The position numbers and the translations under genes were made by a program. Below are positions 37,009 to 46,592 of a stretch of DNA of 64,000 nucleotides, piece after piece. The stretch's first letter is position 1. Every line of letters starts with the position of its first letter. The stretch is from Candidatus Bathyarchaeia archaeon (lineage in GTDB: Archaea > Thermoproteota > Bathyarchaeia > Bathyarchaeales > Bathycorpusculaceae), in the NCBI GenBank assembly GCA_050010515.1, contig JBEKKX010000006.1, forward strand, positions 1-64,000, in the 5' to 3' direction. The notes under the pieces were generated by a model. The model saw nothing but the letters and a program-made list of their open reading frames with translations, was not told the DNA's origin and did no database searches.

Positions 37009-37554
37009 TTACTTTTTTTCCTCCATTTGGTTACTTTGATTGTTTTTTGATGGTTTGACTGCTACTTTGACGATGGTGGGTCGAATTACTTTGCCCTTCA
37101 TCATGTAGCCTTTTCTTATTTCCTCAATCACGGTGCCGTCTTCAACATCGTCTTGCTCTACAGCGGCAATAGCGTTATGACGTGTGGGGTCAAAAGCTTT
37201 GCCCTCTGGGCTTTCTATTGGAGTGACACCTTCTTGCTCAAGAACCTTTCTGAGCTTTTTCAGCGTCATTTCCACGCCTTCTAGCAAGGATTCGGGCGAT
37301 GTTGAGATTTCGCCGTTTTTAACCGCTAACTCCAGCTCATCCACAACATCCAGTAGTTGGATGACTAAGCGTTCGGTGCAGTAATTCTTGGTCTGCTCCG
37401 CTTCACGGTCAAACCGTTTCTTAAAGTTATCAAGGTCAGCCTGCAAATACTTAAGCCTAGTCAAATAATCTTCTGCACGTTTCCGCTCACAATCCAGAAG
37501 CTGCTCTAGCTGGTCAACAGACTTCTCTTCTTGCTCTTTTTGTGCATCAACCAT
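37009..37554 (-). CDS. grpE: nucleotide exchange factor GrpE
   Basis: ADLDNFKKR, FDPTRHNA, KGY...VIRP; abuts dnaK. Confidence 0.95.
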   Translation of the reverse strand: MVDAQKEQEEKSVDQLEQLLDCERKRAEDYLTRLKYLQADLDNFKKRFDREAEQTKNYCTERLVIQLLDVVDELELAVKNGEISTSPESLLEGVEMTLKKLRKVLEQEGVTPIESPEGKAFDPTRHNAIAAVEQDDVEDGTVIEEIRKGYMMKGKVIRPTIVKVAVKPSKNNQSNQMEEKK

Positions 37555-37691
37555 TTTACGCTAGCTCCTTGTGTTTAAAAGCAATCTAACAATCAAACAA
37601 AAAAATTTTTCGCCTTAAAAGGCTTTACCTTTAAAATGTGCAAAGTTAAGAAAAAACATCAAAATTTGTAATAAGTAATTGGTTTTATCGA

Positions 37692-37972
37692 CTAGTGTTT
37701 CAACTGTTTCTTAACTGCTTCTTCGGCTGCTTTGACTGCTTCGGGTAGTTTGTCGCATTTTGTTCCTCCGCCTTGTGCAAAGTTGGGTCTTCCGCCGCCT
37801 CCGCCGCCAAAAATCGGTGCAACCTCTTTCACTATTTGGTTTGCGTTTACGCCTTTTTGCACCGCGTTTTCTCCAGCCATAACCATGAGTCTGCAGGTTT
37901 TTCCGTCAGAACCATAAAACAGCGTTACGGTTGCTGGGTTGCGCTTGATAATCTCCGCGGGGTTTTCACCAT
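37692..37972 (-). pseudogene. orphan 3' fragment of alaS (C-Ala/DHHA1 domain)
   Basis: MVKT/frameshift/EIIKRNPATVTLFYGSDGKTCRLMVMAGENAVQKG..GGGGGGRPNFAQGGG..AVKKQLKH aligns with the C-terminus of alaS at 42315-42610. Confidence 0.85.
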
Positions 37973-40900
37973 GGGCGCCTATTCGGCAAGTTTTCTTTTG
38001 ATTACCATATTTATCATAAATTTATCATTAGAATTTGCTTAACTAAAAACAAGAAATTTCTTTAATGATTATGTCGGATTTTCTTTATTCGCGATATTAA
38101 TTAGCGCAATCTTTGCTGCCATTCGAACACGGCTTTCATAATTGTTATGAGAATCAGCCCTGTATTTAGAGAATTTTGGTAAAGGTGATTTTATTATATT
38201 TGTTAGAAGCAATATCGCTGCGCTATCTCCGATTATGTCCAAAGACTCGATGATCTCGAGCCTATAATCCAAAGCCTCGAACCATTCCTCTTCCTTCGGA
38301 GGAATAAAATCTTCATAAAGCCTTATCAACCTGTCTGTGGCCGATCTACTTGCAATTTTGCCCAACGTAATTACCGTCTCTTTCCAAAGCTCTGTCGGAT
38401 TTCCGAAAGTTGGTTGGTTCATCCAATTTAAGCCCTTGGCAACTTGCCTTTTATCTTCAAAAATCTGCATTAAGCTCGTGATTGATTTAGCATTTCCTAT
38501 TTCCCCGAGTGCCCGCACAATCGATATTTTTGCATTATAATCCGATTCTGTTGAAAGCAGGTTAAGCAAAGGTGTCACTCCAACTCCACTCTTAAGTTTA
38601 CCTATGGAATCTATTGCGGATATTCTGACTTGCGGGTCGGAATCAGTCAAGAAAGAGATTAACGGTTTCATAACTTGATTTCCTCCAATTTCACCTAGCG
38701 CGTCAGCCACAGCCTGCCGTATTTTCGGTTGGCCGCTTTTCATAGGTACTATAAGCGTTTCAACACTATTTTGATCACCGATTTTTCCAAGGGCGATTAT
38801 CGAATGAATCCGAGTTTTTTCATCGCTTGTTTTTACAAAAGAAGTTAGTAAATCGACCGCGCTCTTCGTTCTCATGCGGCCAAGTCCATCAATAGCCAGC
38901 AATCTAAGGTCGGGATTCTTCTCTTGTTCTCTTGATATTTGTAGAAGAATATTTTCTGCTTCTCCCCCACCAATCATTTCAATAGCAAGCATAATCTCTT
39001 TTTCATATCGTCCTTCATTGCTTTTCATGAATTCGACCAAAGGTTCAATTCCCGAATCTATTCTTAACTCGCCAATAGCTTCGATTATACAATTCATGTG
39101 AGTAGATGTGCCCTCTCTCAAAACTTGCACTAGTAAAGGAAGTGCTGCTTCAACTCCTAAGGCTTGGAAGGCATCAAATATGTGTCGTCTGTTTTCTGTT
39201 TTCTTATTACAAAGCAGGTCGACCAGCGCGGGTATCGCTTTGTTACTACCAATCATTCCCAACGCAATTATAGCATTTTTTGCAACAATTGTATCGGTCT
39301 CGTTCAATAACCCAATAAGTGGTGTTAATATGTCATTTCCGCCAATTCTACCCAGTGCTTCAATTGCTCGACTTCTAACTTGTTTATCGTCATCAGATAG
39401 CAACCCAAGAAGCGGTTTGATGGCTGCCCTATTCTGGGTTATGCCTAGTGCCTCTGAGGCGCTAATCCGAATCCACTTATTTGGACTTTTTAGTAGTTCA
39501 ATAAGCGAAATAGTTACCTTGTCATTCCAATTCTTCTGGAGATTTTCACTTGTAAAAAGTATGTTTCCTATAGATTCTGTGGCTGATGTTACAACCATTT
39601 CGTCGGTATCTTGAAGGGCGGTTAGCAGGAATTCAAGTGATTCTTCAGTACATTTTTTTCCTAATATCTCAATTACAGATTTTTTAGTATAAGCATCAGC
39701 GTTATCTGCCATTTTCAAGAGTTTTTTTGTTATGTTTTCGTTTTTTATCTTTGACAACGCTCTTACAATTGCATAACGCAAAGACAAGTCTTGTTTGTCC
39801 TTAAGTGCATTGATCAAGCCTTCGACTGCTTCATTACTTCCTACTTCTGATAAGGAATTAATTGCTTCGTTCCATACATCAGAATCTTCGTCATCTAGCG
39901 CTTTTATCAAGTACTCAGTAACTCTATTATCACCAAGTTCTCCTAGCGTCTTTATCGCAAAGACCTTAAAGTTGCCTTTAATCGCTAAATTGCCGATTAT
40001 ACCTATACTGGTTTCAGGCCTTTTGAGTTTACGTGATAAATTTATTACAAACGTTTCCCAGGTAGGTTCTTGGGACTTAAGGATCTCGTTTATCATGGAT
40101 ATATGAATATCCTGTTTTTTTCCTTCCATCATCATTACAAGATACTGAATGGTTCCCCTCATAATTCTAAATTTTTTCGCTTCATCGATAAAATTGTTCA
40201 AATCATTGATTATTTCTGCTTGTTCTTTTTTTTGCCATTGGTAATCAGATCCGTAAATTATCCATCTTGCCATGACATATTCGAAAAATGCCTCGTAAGC
40301 AAAGCCTACTACTCTATCCCCTTCCCAATTAAGATAGGTAATAAGATTTTCGCTAAGTATCTTACTCAACACTGTTTCTAAATCAGCTGTTGTATCACCA
40401 AGAAGAGCTATTATTTCTGTTTTTGGCAGTTCGCTTTTTTGTTTCTTCTTAAGTTCGGCCACGAATTTGTACATTTGTTCTGTGGCTTTACTCTCTTTAC
40501 CTGTATGTTCGAGCTTCCTTAACCAATATTGATCGAATATTTCAATTCTTCGAACGTCACTAGGAAGATTTTGACCTTCAAATCCTTCGGCAAGAAATCT
40601 CAACATTAGCGGATGCAAACAGATAGCCCTGAGTTCCTTTACAAGAGTTCCCTTGAGTTGATATAACCGCTTATATAATGTCCATGCTTCTTTGAACTCT
40701 TTTGCATTAAACTCATTGAAGCGCAGGTCGTTTTTCATGAAAACGCGGCCTTTTTTTGAGTAAAGGCGATCCAGGAATCCTTCATTATCCTTCAGGAAGA
40801 ATTCCCAATCCATGTCTCGACAGCTAATATAGAATTTGATTCTGTTACCGATATTATTTTGAACTATATCTGCCAAGTCTCTTTTGATCGCCTGTGGGTT

Positions 40901-42314
40901 AGGGGATTCGTTAATTGCGTCTAAAAATACTATCAAATCAAAGTTTTTTTCGTTTAGGGCTTCATTCAAATTTGGCATTAACTGATCAAGATTAGGGTAA
41001 TCCTGCGCGTTAAGAGCATCAATCAAATGTTGTTCAAGTGACCCGTTGATATACATGCTGTTTAGGAATAATACTGGTCGACTATCCATGAGCTTTTCAG
41101 ATAAATGACAGAGAAGGTTAGTCTTTCCAATTCCGGCTTCGCCAACAACAACACATGCGTTTTTTTCTTGCTGATCTAGAAATTCGTCGAACTCTTTTTC
41201 TATCTCTGCGCGTTTGACGTACAGATTTGGAATGTACTTTTTGCTTCGATCAATTGCACTTCCTTTAAGGTCTTGCATTTGATTTATAACCTGTTCTTTG
41301 CATGTTTGCAATATCTTTAGGAATGTTATTTTAGGGTGAATAACAGGAGTTTGTTCGAGTAATGCTCTTGTGTACGCCGAAGCGACAAGTGCAGCGTAGG
41401 AATGCCAATCATCATTTTTTCTATCATCAGAATAATCGCAAATGCCGCGCACTATTAAGTAGCCTACTTGTTGATCCCACGTGGCTTCAGCAGTACCTGA
41501 CCCTTCCATTTCAAAAGCTCTTACCCCAAATTGATCTCTTAACTGATCTCGTTTCCGAGCATTTTTAAGAAGCGTGTTCCCAGATGCGACTGAGCCAATA
41601 AATACTCGAGGCTGCCCTGCAATTCTTTTAGGGTCTTCAGGATGATTAATGAAGATTTCAGGATTATTTGAACTAACTAGGATATCGGTTTTTTCTGAAG
41701 GACGCTCAATCTTTAGCTTTTTCATACCTTGCTTAATGAATTTAAGCCATGGTCGGTCTCCCTCAATTTCCAATGCTTCCATACGTCGAACTGAAGCAAG
41801 TAAATGCGAACTTGGGGGTCTTGGCAAGGGTCTAACAATGATATTTTCTGTTTCTTCCTTAACAAAATCATATTGTATTACGCCATTCTGACCAGATACT
41901 ACTATGTCTCCTAAACGAACATGCTCAGTGGTTTTTTCGGGGTTCGGTGCTCCTCCAGCGATACCTACCATTATAATTGAGTTAATGTTAGGGAAGTCTT
42001 CTAATAACATTGTAGTCTTACTAGCCGCAATGTTATTTCCCATTCCGGCAAGAAATAAAACTACAATATGCGTTCCTCCGTTTAATGCGTGTATTTGTCC
42101 TATACAATAAGTTCGTGGTGACCGAGCGCCTGTTGAATAAGATTTTGTTTTGTTCATCATTGCTTTTACAGCGGCATACTCCTCAGGCAATGCAGTAAGT
42201 ATACCAATTGAAGCCTGCTTGCACTCCGGTGCGCTATCCACATTGCTTGACATGCAACATAGATAAAGATAGGATACCTAAAAAACATGCGCTAATTTTA
42301 GATTGCCAGTTTTC
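37973..42314. mobile_element. inserted single-gene defence islet at the alaS 3' end
   Basis: Bounded by two homologous alaS 3' ends; visibly AT-richer than alaS and dnaK; no integrase present, so mobility is inferred. Confidence 0.45.
38069..42253 (-). CDS. PNP_UDP (nucleosidase)-STAND/NACHT NTPase-HEAT repeat protein, NLR/Avs-like
   Basis: PNP motifs (TALPEE, MVGIAGG, ASGN, FEMEG, RGICDYSD); Walker A GEAGIGKT, Walker B IVFLDAINE, ISCR, HPLML; many HEAT-like repeats (VR..A.EALG.IG). Confidence 0.88.
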   Translation of the reverse strand: MSSNVDSAPECKQASIGILTALPEEYAAVKAMMNKTKSYSTGARSPRTYCIGQIHALNGGTHIVVLFLAGMGNNIAASKTTMLLEDFPNINSIIMVGIAGGAPNPEKTTEHVRLGDIVVSGQNGVIQYDFVKEETENIIVRPLPRPPSSHLLASVRRMEALEIEGDRPWLKFIKQGMKKLKIERPSEKTDILVSSNNPEIFINHPEDPKRIAGQPRVFIGSVASGNTLLKNARKRDQLRDQFGVRAFEMEGSGTAEATWDQQVGYLIVRGICDYSDDRKNDDWHSYAALVASAYTRALLEQTPVIHPKITFLKILQTCKEQVINQMQDLKGSAIDRSKKYIPNLYVKRAEIEKEFDEFLDQQEKNACVVVGEAGIGKTNLLCHLSEKLMDSRPVLFLNSMYINGSLEQHLIDALNAQDYPNLDQLMPNLNEALNEKNFDLIVFLDAINESPNPQAIKRDLADIVQNNIGNRIKFYISCRDMDWEFFLKDNEGFLDRLYSKKGRVFMKNDLRFNEFNAKEFKEAWTLYKRLYQLKGTLVKELRAICLHPLMLRFLAEGFEGQNLPSDVRRIEIFDQYWLRKLEHTGKESKATEQMYKFVAELKKKQKSELPKTEIIALLGDTTADLETVLSKILSENLITYLNWEGDRVVGFAYEAFFEYVMARWIIYGSDYQWQKKEQAEIINDLNNFIDEAKKFRIMRGTIQYLVMMMEGKKQDIHISMINEILKSQEPTWETFVINLSRKLKRPETSIGIIGNLAIKGNFKVFAIKTLGELGDNRVTEYLIKALDDEDSDVWNEAINSLSEVGSNEAVEGLINALKDKQDLSLRYAIVRALSKIKNENITKKLLKMADNADAYTKKSVIEILGKKCTEESLEFLLTALQDTDEMVVTSATESIGNILFTSENLQKNWNDKVTISLIELLKSPNKWIRISASEALGITQNRAAIKPLLGLLSDDDKQVRSRAIEALGRIGGNDILTPLIGLLNETDTIVAKNAIIALGMIGSNKAIPALVDLLCNKKTENRRHIFDAFQALGVEAALPLLVQVLREGTSTHMNCIIEAIGELRIDSGIEPLVEFMKSNEGRYEKEIMLAIEMIGGGEAENILLQISREQEKNPDLRLLAIDGLGRMRTKSAVDLLTSFVKTSDEKTRIHSIIALGKIGDQNSVETLIVPMKSGQPKIRQAVADALGEIGGNQVMKPLISFLTDSDPQVRISAIDSIGKLKSGVGVTPLLNLLSTESDYNAKISIVRALGEIGNAKSITSLMQIFEDKRQVAKGLNWMNQPTFGNPTELWKETVITLGKIASRSATDRLIRLYEDFIPPKEEEWFEALDYRLEIIESLDIIGDSAAILLLTNIIKSPLPKFSKYRADSHNNYESRVRMAAKIALINIANKENPT

Positions 42315-45158
42315 TTAGCAAATGCCCAGTTTGTTCAATTGTTTCTTTACTGCGTCTTCTGCTGCATTTACTGCCTCTTTTAGTTTCTCTGGTTTTGTTC
42401 CGCCGCCCTGCGCAAAGTTGGGTCTTCCACCTCCGCCGCCTCCGATAATAGGCGCAACTTGACGGATTACTTCAGCTGCATTGAAGCCTTGGTCCACTGC
42501 TAATGATCCAGACATAATAACTAGACCGGACGTTTTGTCAGTTTTTCCTCCGAAGACAGTTATTGTGCCTGGATCTTTTTTGATTAATTCACTGGCAAGC
42601 TGAATCATTGGTGCTACGTCAACGCCAGAAAACTCTCGTCTTATTACTTTACATTCCCCGAGAATCGTTATTCCTTCTGTCGTTTCCGCAATAAAATCTG
42701 GTCTCACTTGTTTGCTTTCTTTTTCAATAACAAAGCTTTCCTTTTGGGCTAGTTCCTTGATTAGCTTGCGTTTCTCAACATTTGCCTCCTTGAGTTCTTT
42801 GACGATTTTCTCAGCCGTCTTATCCAACTTGTTCGCAGGAGCCGTCAAAACTTCTGAAACCTTCCAGAGCAGGCTTTCCTGTTTCTGTACTGCCTTTAGC
42901 GCTTCCAGCCCAACTGCGTAGCCTAAGCGTTCCACGCCGTCCTGTACGCGTTCGGTGTAGACGATTTTTACAAAGCCGACCTCGCCAGTGCTTCCCAGAT
43001 GTGTTCCAGCGCACGCTTCAACGTCCCAATCGCCAGTTTTCACCACTCGGATATCTTTGCCAGGTACTGCACCGCCTTGGTAGAGTCTGAAGCCGTAACG
43101 TGCTTCCGCCTCGTTGCGCGGTAGCCAAGTTGTCTCAACCTTCATGTTAGCGCCTATCGCCTGATTAGCCAATATCTCAATTTTATGAACTTCTTCAGTG
43201 CTCAGTCTTCGGTAATGTGAAATGTCAAGGCGTGAAGTTTCCAAGCCCTTCTGAGTGCCTGATTGCCAAACATGCTCGCCTAAAACCCGTCTTGCAGCAC
43301 CATTAATTAGGTGCGTAACCGTATGCGCCTTCATCAAAGCGTAACGTCTGTCCCAGTTGAGAACGCCGTGAACAGTGCTGCCTTCTTTGAACGTTGGCGA
43401 TGTGCTGAGTTTGTGCACTATGATTTTACCGATCTTTTGGGTGTCAACCACGTCAAACTTTGAAGCGCCAACTGTTAGCCATCCGTGGTCTGCTGGTTGC
43501 CCTCCGCCCTCAGGGTAAAAGCATGTTCGATCCAACACGACGTACTTGTCGTTGATTATTTTGAGGACTTTAGCGTCGAACTCACGCATATACGTGTCGG
43601 CATAGTACAGTTGTTCTGTTGCTGGCAGTTGCTCAGCCACTTTCTCGAGCGTTTTCTCGGCTTGGGTTTCTTCCTCTTCGACGGGTTTGGTTGCTTGCAT
43701 GTGTCGTTTAGCGATTAACGCGTAAAAGTTCTCCGGAACCTCCACTTGCACGCCTTCTTTTTCAGCTGCTTGCTTAACAATTTCTGGTGGAAGCCCATGC
43801 GAATCATACAGTTCTGTCAGCGTATCCATTGGTAGTTTGCCTGTGCCTTTTGCTTTCAGGTCGCTGGCTATTCGTTTAACCATGCCTTCTCCGCGTTTGA
43901 GCGTGTCTTCAAACTTTTCCTCCTCAACCTTGAGCATTTCAACGATTTCGTTTTGCATTTCTTTGATGTGTGGGAAATCTTTTGACCAATAATCGACCTG
44001 CATATCCACGATATCGTACAGTTTTGCTGGCTCCATGTTGAGGGTTCGCATTAAACGGTAAACCTTGCGGTACAGCAGCCGCGCTAAGTATCCTTCCTGA
44101 ATGTTCGATGGCACAACCCCTTCAGACAGCATGAAGCTTAAGGTTTTAGTGTGGTCAGTTACTGCCCAAGCATTCTCAATCGGAATCAACACTTTATCAA
44201 GCGTTTCCATGTCAATTCCAGATAACTCTGACACACGTTTTCTAGTGACAAGCCGATTCGCGTTTTTGTCAACGCTAACCAGACCAGAATACTTCGCTAC
44301 ACGAGATAGAAAATCGTTGTCAACATTGGTTATTCCCGCCATGCTGAGAACTTTATCAAGCAAATTCCCGTAAATCGCTTGGAACAAGCTTGGCACACCC
44401 TGACTGATCCAGGTAAAGCGGTCAATGCCATAGCCCGTGTCAACCGTGCGAATAGGCAACTCGATGAAGTCGTCGCCGACAACCTTGTACTGCATGAAAA
44501 CCAAAGTGCCAACCTCTAATCCCCGCACGATGCATTCCACGTCTGGACCAGCGTTGCCGCCGCCAACCCACACATCCTCCTTGTAGACGACCTCCTCAGA
44601 TTTTATGCCAAGCACTTCAGTGGCAAAGCGGTGGTGAAAACGCACTGTTTCATCCTTCCAGTACACTTCCTTGTCAGGATAGTTGAATGCGTGTGCTCCG
44701 CCCATCTCGAAAATGGTTAAGTGCCTGCCAAAAGTTGGTCCAGTATTCGAAATATCCGTCAGCCTAATGCATGGCTGAGAAATCACCAGCGGATTTGCAG
44801 GTGGCGGAGAAATCCCCTCGGTCACGTAGGGCTGGAAGTCAATTATACTTGCATGCGTTAAGTAAATGTCTTTTCGCCATCGGGCAACAACCGGATAAGG
44901 TTTAATGCGGGTATGCCCATTCTTCTCAAAAAACGAAAGAAACGCCTCCCTCATCTCGGAAAGGCTGAAACTTTTCTTTGTGGCTGGATTATTAATGAAA
45001 GTGTAGTATCCGCATTCGTCGGAGCTGGATTCGCCGCAAGTTTCCTGCTCAGGGTTCTGAGTCCAATAATACTCACCGCATTTTGGACAATGCTTCCTAA
45101 CGAAACCTTCCTGTTTAAAGAATGGAAGAGCATAATCTTCTGCCGTAAACTGCTTCAA
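42315..45158 (-). CDS. alaS: alanine--tRNA ligase (archaeal type)
   Basis: SQPCIR, VDTGYG, FYPEGGGQ, editing motifs HTVTH and ACAGTH, C-terminal GGGGGRPNFAQGGG. Confidence 0.97.
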   Translation of the reverse strand: MKQFTAEDYALPFFKQEGFVRKHCPKCGEYYWTQNPEQETCGESSSDECGYYTFINNPATKKSFSLSEMREAFLSFFEKNGHTRIKPYPVVARWRKDIYLTHASIIDFQPYVTEGISPPPANPLVISQPCIRLTDISNTGPTFGRHLTIFEMGGAHAFNYPDKEVYWKDETVRFHHRFATEVLGIKSEEVVYKEDVWVGGGNAGPDVECIVRGLEVGTLVFMQYKVVGDDFIELPIRTVDTGYGIDRFTWISQGVPSLFQAIYGNLLDKVLSMAGITNVDNDFLSRVAKYSGLVSVDKNANRLVTRKRVSELSGIDMETLDKVLIPIENAWAVTDHTKTLSFMLSEGVVPSNIQEGYLARLLYRKVYRLMRTLNMEPAKLYDIVDMQVDYWSKDFPHIKEMQNEIVEMLKVEEEKFEDTLKRGEGMVKRIASDLKAKGTGKLPMDTLTELYDSHGLPPEIVKQAAEKEGVQVEVPENFYALIAKRHMQATKPVEEEETQAEKTLEKVAEQLPATEQLYYADTYMREFDAKVLKIINDKYVVLDRTCFYPEGGGQPADHGWLTVGASKFDVVDTQKIGKIIVHKLSTSPTFKEGSTVHGVLNWDRRYALMKAHTVTHLINGAARRVLGEHVWQSGTQKGLETSRLDISHYRRLSTEEVHKIEILANQAIGANMKVETTWLPRNEAEARYGFRLYQGGAVPGKDIRVVKTGDWDVEACAGTHLGSTGEVGFVKIVYTERVQDGVERLGYAVGLEALKAVQKQESLLWKVSEVLTAPANKLDKTAEKIVKELKEANVEKRKLIKELAQKESFVIEKESKQVRPDFIAETTEGITILGECKVIRREFSGVDVAPMIQLASELIKKDPGTITVFGGKTDKTSGLVIMSGSLAVDQGFNAAEVIRQVAPIIGGGGGGRPNFAQGGGTKPEKLKEAVNAAEDAVKKQLNKLGIC

Positions 45159-45221: not shown

Positions 45222-46592
45222 TTAAATAATTTCGCCCAACTTTCTAACTAAAGAAGAATGCCAGCCCTCAATCATCGGCTTAGATTCATAAAGCTGTTTT
45301 TCCAACCCGTAACGCCTAAGCGGTTTGGTAAGATGTCTCTGTGACCTTGTCGAAGTCAAGTACAGACCAGCGTTAAGCGTTCTAGGTAGGGCTGATTCTT
45401 TCTTGGTTAAGTCGCCATATTCCGCTCCGCATTTTTCACAGCGGAACCCTTGGTTTTTGCCCATGGACTTCAAGCGTTTACCGCAGCATGGGCAGAGCGG
45501 ATTCTCAAATACCGTTTTCGGCGCAAGGTTTAGGATGTTAATTTTTTCAAGGTTAATTGTTAACGGCTTGCTTGACGTTGGCTTATGCACTGCACCATAA
45601 ACCTCAACGCTGTCGCCAACGATGAGTTCTCTTGCGATTTTGCGTAGGCTACCAGTTGGTTCGTAAGCGGCGCAATCTACTTCTGCCGAATCATCTTTAA
45701 TTGAAAAGATAACGTGGCGCAGGGGAACTATCCGCGGGTTCTGCGAAACAACGCCTTTAGCGATTACTGAACTGTAAGGTTCAATCTTGCTTAATGCTTC
45801 AACAGGCTTTAGGTGGGCATCGGTGCCTTGGTTTGAACGGAAAATAACCCAGCGCTCAACACTTTCAAGCGGCTTAATCATGCCGTAAGCTTTCTTTACT
45901 ATTTCTGGCGATTCGCCTCTTATGCCGAAGAGAATTGGGTCTGGACCTCGAGGTGTAATGATTACTCTGCGCTTCTCACAATCAACATTGTTAAAAGTGT
46001 AAGGCTGCAATTGCTGATCCATCTCAAAAATGGATACTTCATCAACTTTCCTCTTTGAACCCCAATTCTGCGGTGCCCTATAAGCAATTAACTCGTACGT
46101 GTGGTCGCAGTTGAGGGTTTCGCCAACGGCTGCCAACGCGCCAATGATGCCTCTGCAAGAGTTAAAGCCTAACGCTTCAGCCCCAAACTTCTTGATTAGC
46201 GCCATTGCTTCTTTGAGTTTTACAATGCTTGTTTCAGTTTTTTTCGCAAAAACCCCCAGTTCCTCGGGGATTTCTTGCCCCTTCAAAAAGACTATTCCAG
46301 GGTCTGTGCCTTTCTCTTTGATGGCTGAGTTTTCTTCCCATAAAGTTATAGCTGACTCTTTTATTTGCTCTTCAAATGTGGCGTCATACTTGAATCTTAG
46401 GCAGAGGGCACCGTTGCCTCTTGTTTTCCATGGCACGTTCGGATTAAGCCTGATCAAGCTTGGATAATCAGTAAATTCAACGTAAAACTTTTCAAGCTCT
46501 TCAATAAGTAATGCCGCAAGATAGGTTGTGCAACCCCCCTTCGTTGAGTCTGTATCGTCCAGCCCAATGTGCATTACCTGTTGCCTATTCAA
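45222..46592 (-). CDS. tiaS: tRNA(Ile2) agmatidine synthetase
   Basis: GLDDTDS..GGCTTY, RLNPNVPWKTRGNGA, GPDPILFGIRG, SNQGTD, zinc ribbon, HLTKP. Confidence 0.95.
   Translation of the reverse strand: MNRQQVMHIGLDDTDSTKGGCTTYLAALLIEELEKFYVEFTDYPSLIRLNPNVPWKTRGNGALCLRFKYDATFEEQIKESAITLWEENSAIKEKGTDPGIVFLKGQEIPEELGVFAKKTETSIVKLKEAMALIKKFGAEALGFNSCRGIIGALAAVGETLNCDHTYELIAYRAPQNWGSKRKVDEVSIFEMDQQLQPYTFNNVDCEKRRVIITPRGPDPILFGIRGESPEIVKKAYGMIKPLESVERWVIFRSNQGTDAHLKPVEALSKIEPYSSVIAKGVVSQNPRIVPLRHVIFSIKDDSAEVDCAAYEPTGSLRKIARELIVGDSVEVYGAVHKPTSSKPLTINLEKINILNLAPKTVFENPLCPCCGKRLKSMGKNQGFRCEKCGAEYGDLTKKESALPRTLNAGLYLTSTRSQRHLTKPLRRYGLEKQLYESKPMIEGWHSSLVRKLGEII

Follow-up and report, generated by a model that had tools for sequence, protein, structure and literature searches.

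How does an accessory gene of immune type come to lie between an essential gene and a second version of that gene's own 3′ end, with no integrase beside it? The question is posed by a 64-kb stretch of DNA (hereafter the window) that belongs to contig C6 of a 2.38-Mb Bathyarchaeia genome, the host being a peat-soil archaeon. On the minus strand of the window, the alanyl-tRNA synthetase (AlaRS) gene alaS is followed by a gene for a 1394-aa protein, here called the cargo, then by an orphan alaS end, and then by grpE. A preliminary description of this DNA had reported that two versions of the alaS C-terminus flank an NLR-like gene, and both are present as described. The analysis presented here indicates that a single import of DNA probably replaced the tail of alaS and brought the defence-type gene along with it, by homologous recombination on one side and an illegitimate join on the other. 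In what follows, the genome of the window is labelled G000, other genomes carry G labels, database proteins P labels, and contigs or loci L labels. The features of the locus are listed below in window coordinates.

42315–45158, minus strand: alaS, intact, 947 aa, C-terminal end ...KKQLNKLGIC
42735–45158, minus strand: native alaS body, residues 1 to ~808, with the aminoacylation, tRNA-recognition and editing domains and most of the helical linker (Pfam tRNA-synt_2c, tRNA_SAD)
42315–42734, minus strand: foreign "type-2" alaS 3′ end, the C-Ala/DHHA1 module of residues ~809–947, which completes the sole alaS reading frame (Pfam DHHA1, E 7.7e-16)
42254–42314, minus strand: 61-nt spacer from the alaS stop to the cargo start, inside the imported segment, without counterpart in congeners
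38069–42253, minus strand: cargo gene, 1394 aa, PNP/NACHT-like/HEAT, with Pfam and PADLOC matches
37974–38068, minus strand: 95-nt A+T-rich spacer from the cargo stop to the orphan, with the illegitimate right junction at its lower end and no similarity to native alaS or to congeners
37692–37973, minus strand: orphan, the native 3′ end of alaS, 282 nt with the final ~94 codons and the stop (Pfam DHHA1, E 6.6e-13), end ...KKQLKH
37009–37554, minus strand: grpE (Pfam GrpE, 4.3e-46), which opens the native grpE-dnaK-dnaJ block found behind alaS in relatives
After grpE, minus strand: dnaK and dnaJ, native block
45222–46592, minus strand: tiaS, upstream of alaS

A foreign end on alaS and a native orphan beside grpE

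Against 20 congeners, the alaS body keeps 75–94% nucleotide identity along its length, and from alaS nucleotide ~2400 to near the end of the gene identity drops to ~50–57% in all 20 comparisons. By blastn the body is colinear with eight congeners, at 76.5–89.8% nucleotide identity, down to window positions 42729–42748. The maximum chi-square break falls at 42734 against G004, with 89.8% identity before it and 61.8% after it, and at 42750 against both G003 and G016, in agreement with the earlier placement of the junction at 42700–42760. The foreign tail is the last ~420 nt of the intact gene. It is preceded by a transition zone (42735–42805) that is conserved between both tail types, and the native-type body reads into it in frame and without interruption, providing a homologous anchor on this side of the insert. 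The orphan, on the other hand, is colinear by blastn with the alaS ends of relatives, at 85.5% identity to G004 and 83.8% to G003 over 283–284 nt, and its identity of 84–86% to the nearest relatives is comparable to the values for the gene body. Because the fragment matches the alaS ends of relatives about as well as the body does, whereas the intact tail does not, the intact gene appears from these comparisons to carry an imported tail and the grpE-side fragment to be the original end. This bears out the proposal of the preliminary description that incoming DNA supplied a foreign C-Ala domain and made alaS chimeric (50–57% identity to relatives for the intact end versus 84–86% for the orphan). 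The reverse scenario, in which the intact tail is native and the orphan foreign, is excluded, since the orphan tracks the gene body in identity and the intact end does not.

Base composition, for which a scan had been suggested together with that proposal, gave a matching result. GC content at third codon positions (GC3) is 0.321 in the foreign tail and 0.339 in the cargo gene (overall GC 0.389), compared with 0.516 in the alaS body and 0.455 in the orphan, and the mean for 46 open reading frames (ORFs) of the window is 0.417±0.049. The two alaS ends also differ from each other at many positions, as had been remarked: they are 71% identical over 203 ungapped nt and show 77% mean column identity in a MAFFT alignment. 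In addition, the intact tail has a 15-nt insertion in common with the tails of other genomes.

The orphan itself has barely decayed. Its final 88 codons form an open frame, and comparison with congeners shows that it has lost 1 nt at ~37959, which corresponds to the frameshift reported earlier near 37958. The ratio of nonsynonymous to synonymous substitution rates (dN/dS) for the orphan against G004, G003 and G016 is 0.16–0.23, as low as the 0.17–0.27 found between those intact genes, which suggests that the displacement was recent on the scale of species divergence. Its closest match is P0086, at 89% amino acid identity. Only one full-length copy of alaS is present in the genome, the other match being a 33%-identical editing-domain protein.

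The imported stretch runs from 42734 down to 37974 (4761 nt) and has no counterpart in relatives by blastn. It consists of the foreign tail, one gene, and the 61-nt and 95-nt spacers. At its lower end the joint is non-homologous: ~90 nt of native alaS sequence, upstream of the orphan, are gone between the two junctions, and the 95-nt spacer that stands there has no homology to the target. The orphan lies only 137 nt from grpE, and synteny with congeners picks up again at window position 37626. The absence of an integrase, noted in the preliminary description, was confirmed. No integrase or transposase Pfam match was found among the window's 46 ORFs of at least 110 aa, contig C6 has no match to the tyrosine recombinase family PF00589 (the genome's matches are all on other contigs), and no tRNA genes were found within the 64 kb. 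The junctions at ~42735 and ~37973 have no sequence in common that could be an attachment (att) core. Between the two alaS tails, exact identity extends over 17 nt at most (42415–42431 and 37780–37796), and this stretch sits in a conserved GRPNFA-coding motif 300 nt inside the tails. This 17-mer was considered as an att core and rejected, because it is within the chance range (the intact tail shares exact matches of 11–20 nt with unrelated alaS ends) and because a crossover there predicts the opposite arrangement. The 17-mer spans five synonymous sites at which four relatives differ; it is possibly a short gene-conversion patch, and the match was judged to be within chance.

The arrangement is real rather than an artefact of assembly. 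One metagenome contig of 131 kb (L100), which may derive from the same source, is 100% identical over 20182 nt, and 20 of the 22 public runs listed hold the stretch or part of it. The junctions were checked in four of these 22 runs, taken from four studies that were not flagged as possible sources. Logan contigs cross both the left (~42735) and the right (~37973) junction with 0 differences in all four runs.

Tail exchange and the alaS–grpE interval in relatives

No near match to the intact tail came out of the searches. Its best match among 5.8 billion proteins is 64% identical at the amino acid level, and the best matches are 61% within 120 genomes of the genus and 59% outside the genus among 332 genomes of the family. 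The carriers of the nearest tails have alaS bodies 75–88% identical to that of G000 and belong to the same genus or, for G381, to a neighbouring genus. In a tail tree of 41 rows and 129 columns, the intact tail of G000 groups with those of G044, P0001, P0003, P0005, P0006, P0007 and P0009 in a clade, here called type 2, with an SH-like approximate likelihood ratio (SH-aLRT) support of 97. The orphan falls among the remaining, "type-1" tails, next to the relatives with the closest bodies, P0086 among them. The type-2 carriers, however, are dispersed over the body tree, a distribution that takes six changes, all of them forced by well-supported branches. Holding these carriers together on the body tree is rejected by the approximately unbiased (AU) test, both for all eight (p-AU 2.6e-95) and for the six crown rows (4.7e-8). 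Separate trees for the body and the two ends, as recommended in the preliminary description, thus place the intact tail with type 2 and the orphan with type 1.

The type-2 carriers also each lose similarity to their nearest body relative at the same point, G000 residues ~800–815, where type-1 control pairs hold 69–97%. Because type-2 tails are scattered over the genus tree with one breakpoint, the C-Ala module appears to have been exchanged repeatedly across the genus at a fixed boundary. The P rows of the tree were picked from a list ranked by similarity to the G000 tail, and type 2 is hence over-represented among them; among species representatives of the genus, only G000 and G044 are type 2. 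The C-Ala module outpaces the body in general, with a median tail-minus-body identity of −13 points, and the difference is −33 to −35 for G000, G044, P0001, P0003 and P0006. In G044, 736 bp separate the type-2 alaS from a conserved 134-aa gene, after which comes grpE; neither orphan nor cargo is present. This genome looks like a case of clean replacement, and G000 like a replacement that left an orphan. As a separate observation, several congeners have alaS in two or three frames: L038 (G004), L050 (G012), L064 (G022), L065 (G020) and L097 (G114). Identity to G000 shifts between the alaS pieces, for example from 91% to 70% in G012, and identity between G000 and G004 dips to 75–81% at alaS nucleotides 673–1044, where G003 is closer. 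The split frames and shifts suggest further mosaicism, assembly indel errors, or both.

The alaS–grpE interval was compared across relatives, as the preliminary description had suggested, and its content does vary. Of the 26 congener loci, 13 have grpE-dnaK next after alaS, which argues that this adjacency is ancestral. The gap between the two genes measures 0.6–2.7 kb in congeners and holds, for example, PadR-like regulators (G004 and G100), a response regulator (G016), or three ORFs without assigned function whose products by eye look membrane-bound or secreted (G003). What the comparison does not bear out is the further proposal that the alaS 3′ end is a hotspot for defence cargo. A cargo homologue was found at none of the 26 congener alaS loci, and a recognised defence gene in none of their alaS–grpE gaps. 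In 10 congeners lacking the grpE adjacency, the 33 of 53 downstream ORFs that were scanned yielded no recognised defence system apart from a HerA-like ATPase in G019; the others are assorted housekeeping or function-unassigned genes. A tail query matched 105 of the 120 genus genomes, and a second alaS-type tail, the orphan, is present in G000 only (1 of 120). Other second matches are weak and lie inside frames of ~490–520 aa. An apparent second tail copy in G477 was rejected as an orphan: the ends of contigs L108 and L110 overlap with 96% identity over 304 nt, which reflects strain heterogeneity or an assembly break. The interval is therefore variable, but a dedicated defence hotspot is not established. 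A narrow literature search on alanyl-tRNA synthetase and genomic islands found no report of alaS as an integration site. The idea that the insert is locked in place fails as well, since a deletion of the cargo alone would spare alaS, and recombination would still be possible between the new tail and that part of the orphan which remains in frame. Taken as a whole, the preliminary interpretation stands for the foreign tail, the native orphan and the missing integrase, and falls for the defence hotspot and the lock.

Two further features of the interval were seen in relatives. Immediately downstream of alaS, G019 has the HerA-like ATPase (DUF87) together with a 359-aa ORF (L037 14307–16843), and these could be a defence pair. 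Furthermore, in most congeners the position directly upstream of grpE is taken by a conserved gene of 130–134 aa, which has no Pfam match and starts MRRSLTVTPENDKK. Its frame is intact in nine of the 13 grpE-adjacent loci (G013, G001, G002, G010, G022, G020, G044, G114 and G100). In G012, DNA matching this gene is found at the same place without an open frame of at least 50 aa, and G000, G003, G004 and G016 lack the gene. Its product might regulate the grpE-dnaK-dnaJ block or act as a partner of it. Examples, all upstream of grpE, are the following.

L033 3188–3580: 130–134-aa gene
L034 15858–16262: 130–134-aa gene
L036 3704–4108: 130–134-aa gene
L096 15753–16157: 130–134-aa gene
L097 15872–16276: 130–134-aa gene
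L098 5118–5519: 130–134-aa gene, with others elsewhere

The cargo gene

The cargo has the tripartite layout of STAND/NLR proteins, with an N-terminal effector, an NTPase and a C-terminal repeat sensor. Its residues 16–282 match PNP_UDP_1 (Pfam 9.4e-17). A P-loop NTPase region follows at ~352–483, with a match to NPHP3_N (PF24883) at 25.7 bits, over the cut-off of 24.8, and a HEAT-repeat region occupies ~760–1390 (HEAT_2, 1.2e-77). PADLOC matches were obtained to a PN-superfamily effector (1.4e-20) and to Avs2 (7.6e-17), the latter in the NTPase region 332–706 only. The sequence GEAGIGKT at 371–378 and a hydrophobic run ending at D445 (VFLDAINE) are invariant with P0122 and P0123, the closest cargo homologues at 62–67% identity, and on our own reading they would represent Walker A and Walker B, respectively. 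In the N-terminal domain, the E-M-E and C-D motifs align with MTA/SAH nucleosidase chains and would hold the catalytic residues of a predicted nucleosidase. According to PMC10952713, effectors with PF01048 break down (d)ATP in systems of the CBASS, Detocs and NLR-like types.

Homologues of the cargo are rare: of 401 genomes searched within the order, 2 have one. Among 101 genus genomes, matches that span effector and NTPase occur only in G000 and G001. Of 11 further matching genomes, 10 match the HEAT-repeat region alone, and G114 has a weak match (24% identity, residues 308–472). Among the matches listed in a metagenome scan with the cargo, only the window's own DNA was recovered (L100). Two genome-contig scans gave no match in one case and only G001 in the other. 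The G001 homologue (L063, G001:C7, 3261–13832) is broken into four frames by TGA stops and adjoins a type I restriction-modification system in which HsdM is intact and HsdR is in pieces, so that the neighbourhood looks like a decaying defence island. It is on a different contig from alaS, at an unrelated locus, and has no piece of alaS alongside. Two DUF72 genes upstream of it were considered as the footprint of a displaced end and rejected, since they are distant paralogues (29–36% identity).

Because of the alignment with MTA/SAH nucleosidase motifs, the listing of PF01048 among defence effectors, and the presence of HsdM and HsdR beside the G001 homologue, the cargo is most likely a STAND/NLR-like antiviral sensor with a nucleotide-depleting effector that acts by abortive infection. 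Recognition of a viral product would fall to its HEAT repeats, oligomerisation to the P-loop module and depletion of nucleotides to the nucleosidase. Like Avs, bNACHT and PNP effectors of the Cap17 type, as these are described in PMC10952713, it combines an effector, a P-loop NTPase and a repeat sensor in one polypeptide. It differs from them in that its match to Avs2 is limited to the NTPase region, its match to Pfam NACHT is below the cut-off, its sensor is made of HEAT repeats, it comes from an uncultured archaeon, and its activity is a predicted one.

Origin of the arrangement

How, then, did the tail, the cargo and the orphan come to lie side by side? In the account that we consider probable, the donor would have been an unsampled relative within or near the genus, in which a type-2 C-Ala module was directly followed by a PNP-NACHT-HEAT gene. 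Donor DNA would have paired with the conserved alaS body of the recipient, placing the left crossover at ~42735–42805. On the right side, an illegitimate join would have formed inside the recipient's own alaS tail, with loss of ~90 nt of native sequence, leaving the last 282 nt of native alaS as an orphan beside grpE. Such a process would amount to homology-facilitated illegitimate recombination, without an integrase. The chimeric alaS would have stayed functional, with the swap at the boundary of the modular tRNA-binding C-Ala tail. It must function because it is the sole full-length copy in the genome, and a working chimera is plausible because C-Ala is described as a diverged, modular tRNA-binding domain and forms of AlaRS without C-Ala exist (PMC10485164, PMC10036535). 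A single donor and a single event are favoured because the tail and the cargo have a low GC3 in common and are only 61 nt apart. We infer the single event, the recombination route and the donor gene order from this pattern, just as we infer the antiviral role of the cargo from its domains.

Several points weigh against this account. No donor was found, the best tail match being 61–64% identical in amino acid sequence and the best cargo homologues 62–67%. The AU test keeps trees in which the intact tail joins type-1 ends (p 0.072) as well as trees in which the orphan joins type-2 ends (p 0.285), the 129-column alignment being too short to decide. With regard to the cargo, the match to NACHT (PF05729) scores 22.4 bits and is below the gathering cut-off of 26.7, and the neighbours of the gene in G000 are housekeeping genes with no defence island. 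Moreover, the picture would be similar if an integrase-borne element had decayed, or if there had been two events in succession.

The integrase-borne element would be a virus or integrative plasmid that carried its own alaS 3′ end, and later deletions would have taken the integrase, other genes, the right att core and ~90 nt of native sequence; we regard this history as unlikely. Its closest precedent is the insertion of the cryptic prophage e14 in icd, reportedly treated by Hill et al. 1989. As described in PMC13626634, the icd locus of E. coli K-12 has the same overall layout as alaS, in that a substitute 3′ end forms a functional chimera, while beyond the element the native end survives as a downstream pseudogene, icdC. 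The exact 17-mer common to the two alaS ends could likewise be taken for a trace of site-specific integration. However, e14 itself measures 15 kb, recombines site-specifically by its own means and excises precisely (PMC13626634), whereas the alaS insert is 4.8 kb long, holds a single gene, has no integrase or att core, came with the loss of ~90 nt of target, and carries a substitute end that is ~45% divergent at the nucleotide level. Neither an excisionase nor any other element gene lies between the junctions or elsewhere in the 64-kb window, PF00589 has no match on the contig, and the junctions lack a common core. The 17-mer is within the chance range, and had the crossover fallen there, the intact gene should be native on the upstream side of it, contrary to what is seen. 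Viral contigs were scanned with the cargo and, separately, with the tail, and neither scan gave a match. If instead there were two events, a type-2 tail would have displaced the native tail first, with the orphan directly downstream, and the cargo would have been inserted between them later. G044 shows that a type-2 tail without cargo exists, and the homologue in G001 shows that the cargo can stand at an unrelated locus. Nevertheless, this order of events is distinctly unlikely: tail and cargo are both unusually low in GC3 (0.321 and 0.339) and lie 61 nt apart, no repeats or remnants of a second insertion were found, and two rare events would be needed at one spot.

The two remaining explanations can be given almost no credence. 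A local duplication of the alaS 3′ end, with one copy diverging fast and no horizontal transfer, would account for two same-strand copies of one gene end 4.6 kb apart. Yet the intact end is as far from the orphan (71–77%) as it is from all congeners, a 15-nt insertion and a common clade link it to tails in other genomes, and it has a shifted GC3. In addition, an orphan that is almost undecayed leaves no time for ~45% nucleotide divergence in situ. Similarly improbable is an assembly chimera of two populations with different alaS tails. Unitigs do break at 37906–37935, inside the orphan, in all four runs, and in one run there is a loose end at 37946 that by eye continues into an uninterrupted alaS of native type, and this suggests that a close relative lacking the insertion co-occurs. 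Against a chimera, the contigs of all four runs cross both junctions without a difference, and the 131-kb contig is identical over 20182 nt.

Returning to import by one-sided homology, the nearest parallels in mechanism are found among polymorphic toxins. C-terminal displacement and homology-facilitated illegitimate recombination are reportedly the subject of Jackson 2009, de Vries & Wackernagel 2002 and Prudhomme 2002. Homology-facilitated illegitimate recombination was put forward for the orphan ends and arrays at type VI secretion system (T6SS) and Rhs loci (PMC5361080). Displacement at Rhs, contact-dependent inhibition (CDI) and T6SS loci, as described in that source, resembles the alaS case in its conserved 5′ anchor, its new 3′ module with a downstream gene, the retention of the old end as an orphan and the lack of an integrase. 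Both clean and orphan-leaving replacements are found there, as they are at alaS in G044 and G000, respectively. The difference is that the variable tip of those systems is a toxin weapon and the orphan is useful as immunity, whereas at alaS the exchanged part is the tRNA-binding tail of an essential archaeal synthetase and the passenger is of STAND type. A toxin/immunity module is not present here: the exchanged module is DHHA1/C-Ala and the next gene encodes the 1394-aa STAND protein, so the likeness is one of mechanism only.

The locus provides a clean natural example, with support from both sequence and assembly, of an accessory immune-type gene entering an archaeal chromosome without mobile-element machinery, and in the process an essential aminoacyl-tRNA synthetase had its tail rewritten in frame. 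Gene-end displacement that leaves an orphan, best known from e14 and from polymorphic toxins, would thus also act on a core translation gene in uncultured archaea. That C-Ala appears to be interchangeable between lineages at a fixed boundary matters for the modularity of AlaRS and for phylogenies that take alaS as a marker. A broader reading is possible but doubtful: the C-Ala tail would be an exchangeable cassette, of which two divergent classes move between lineages (at least five crown lineages being type 2 against the body phylogeny), with downstream DNA riding along, the synthetase body serving as an integrase-free anchor, and the cargo being the first passenger caught. If this were true, the exchange of alaS tails would represent a general archaeal route by which accessory genes come to be placed next to essential genes.

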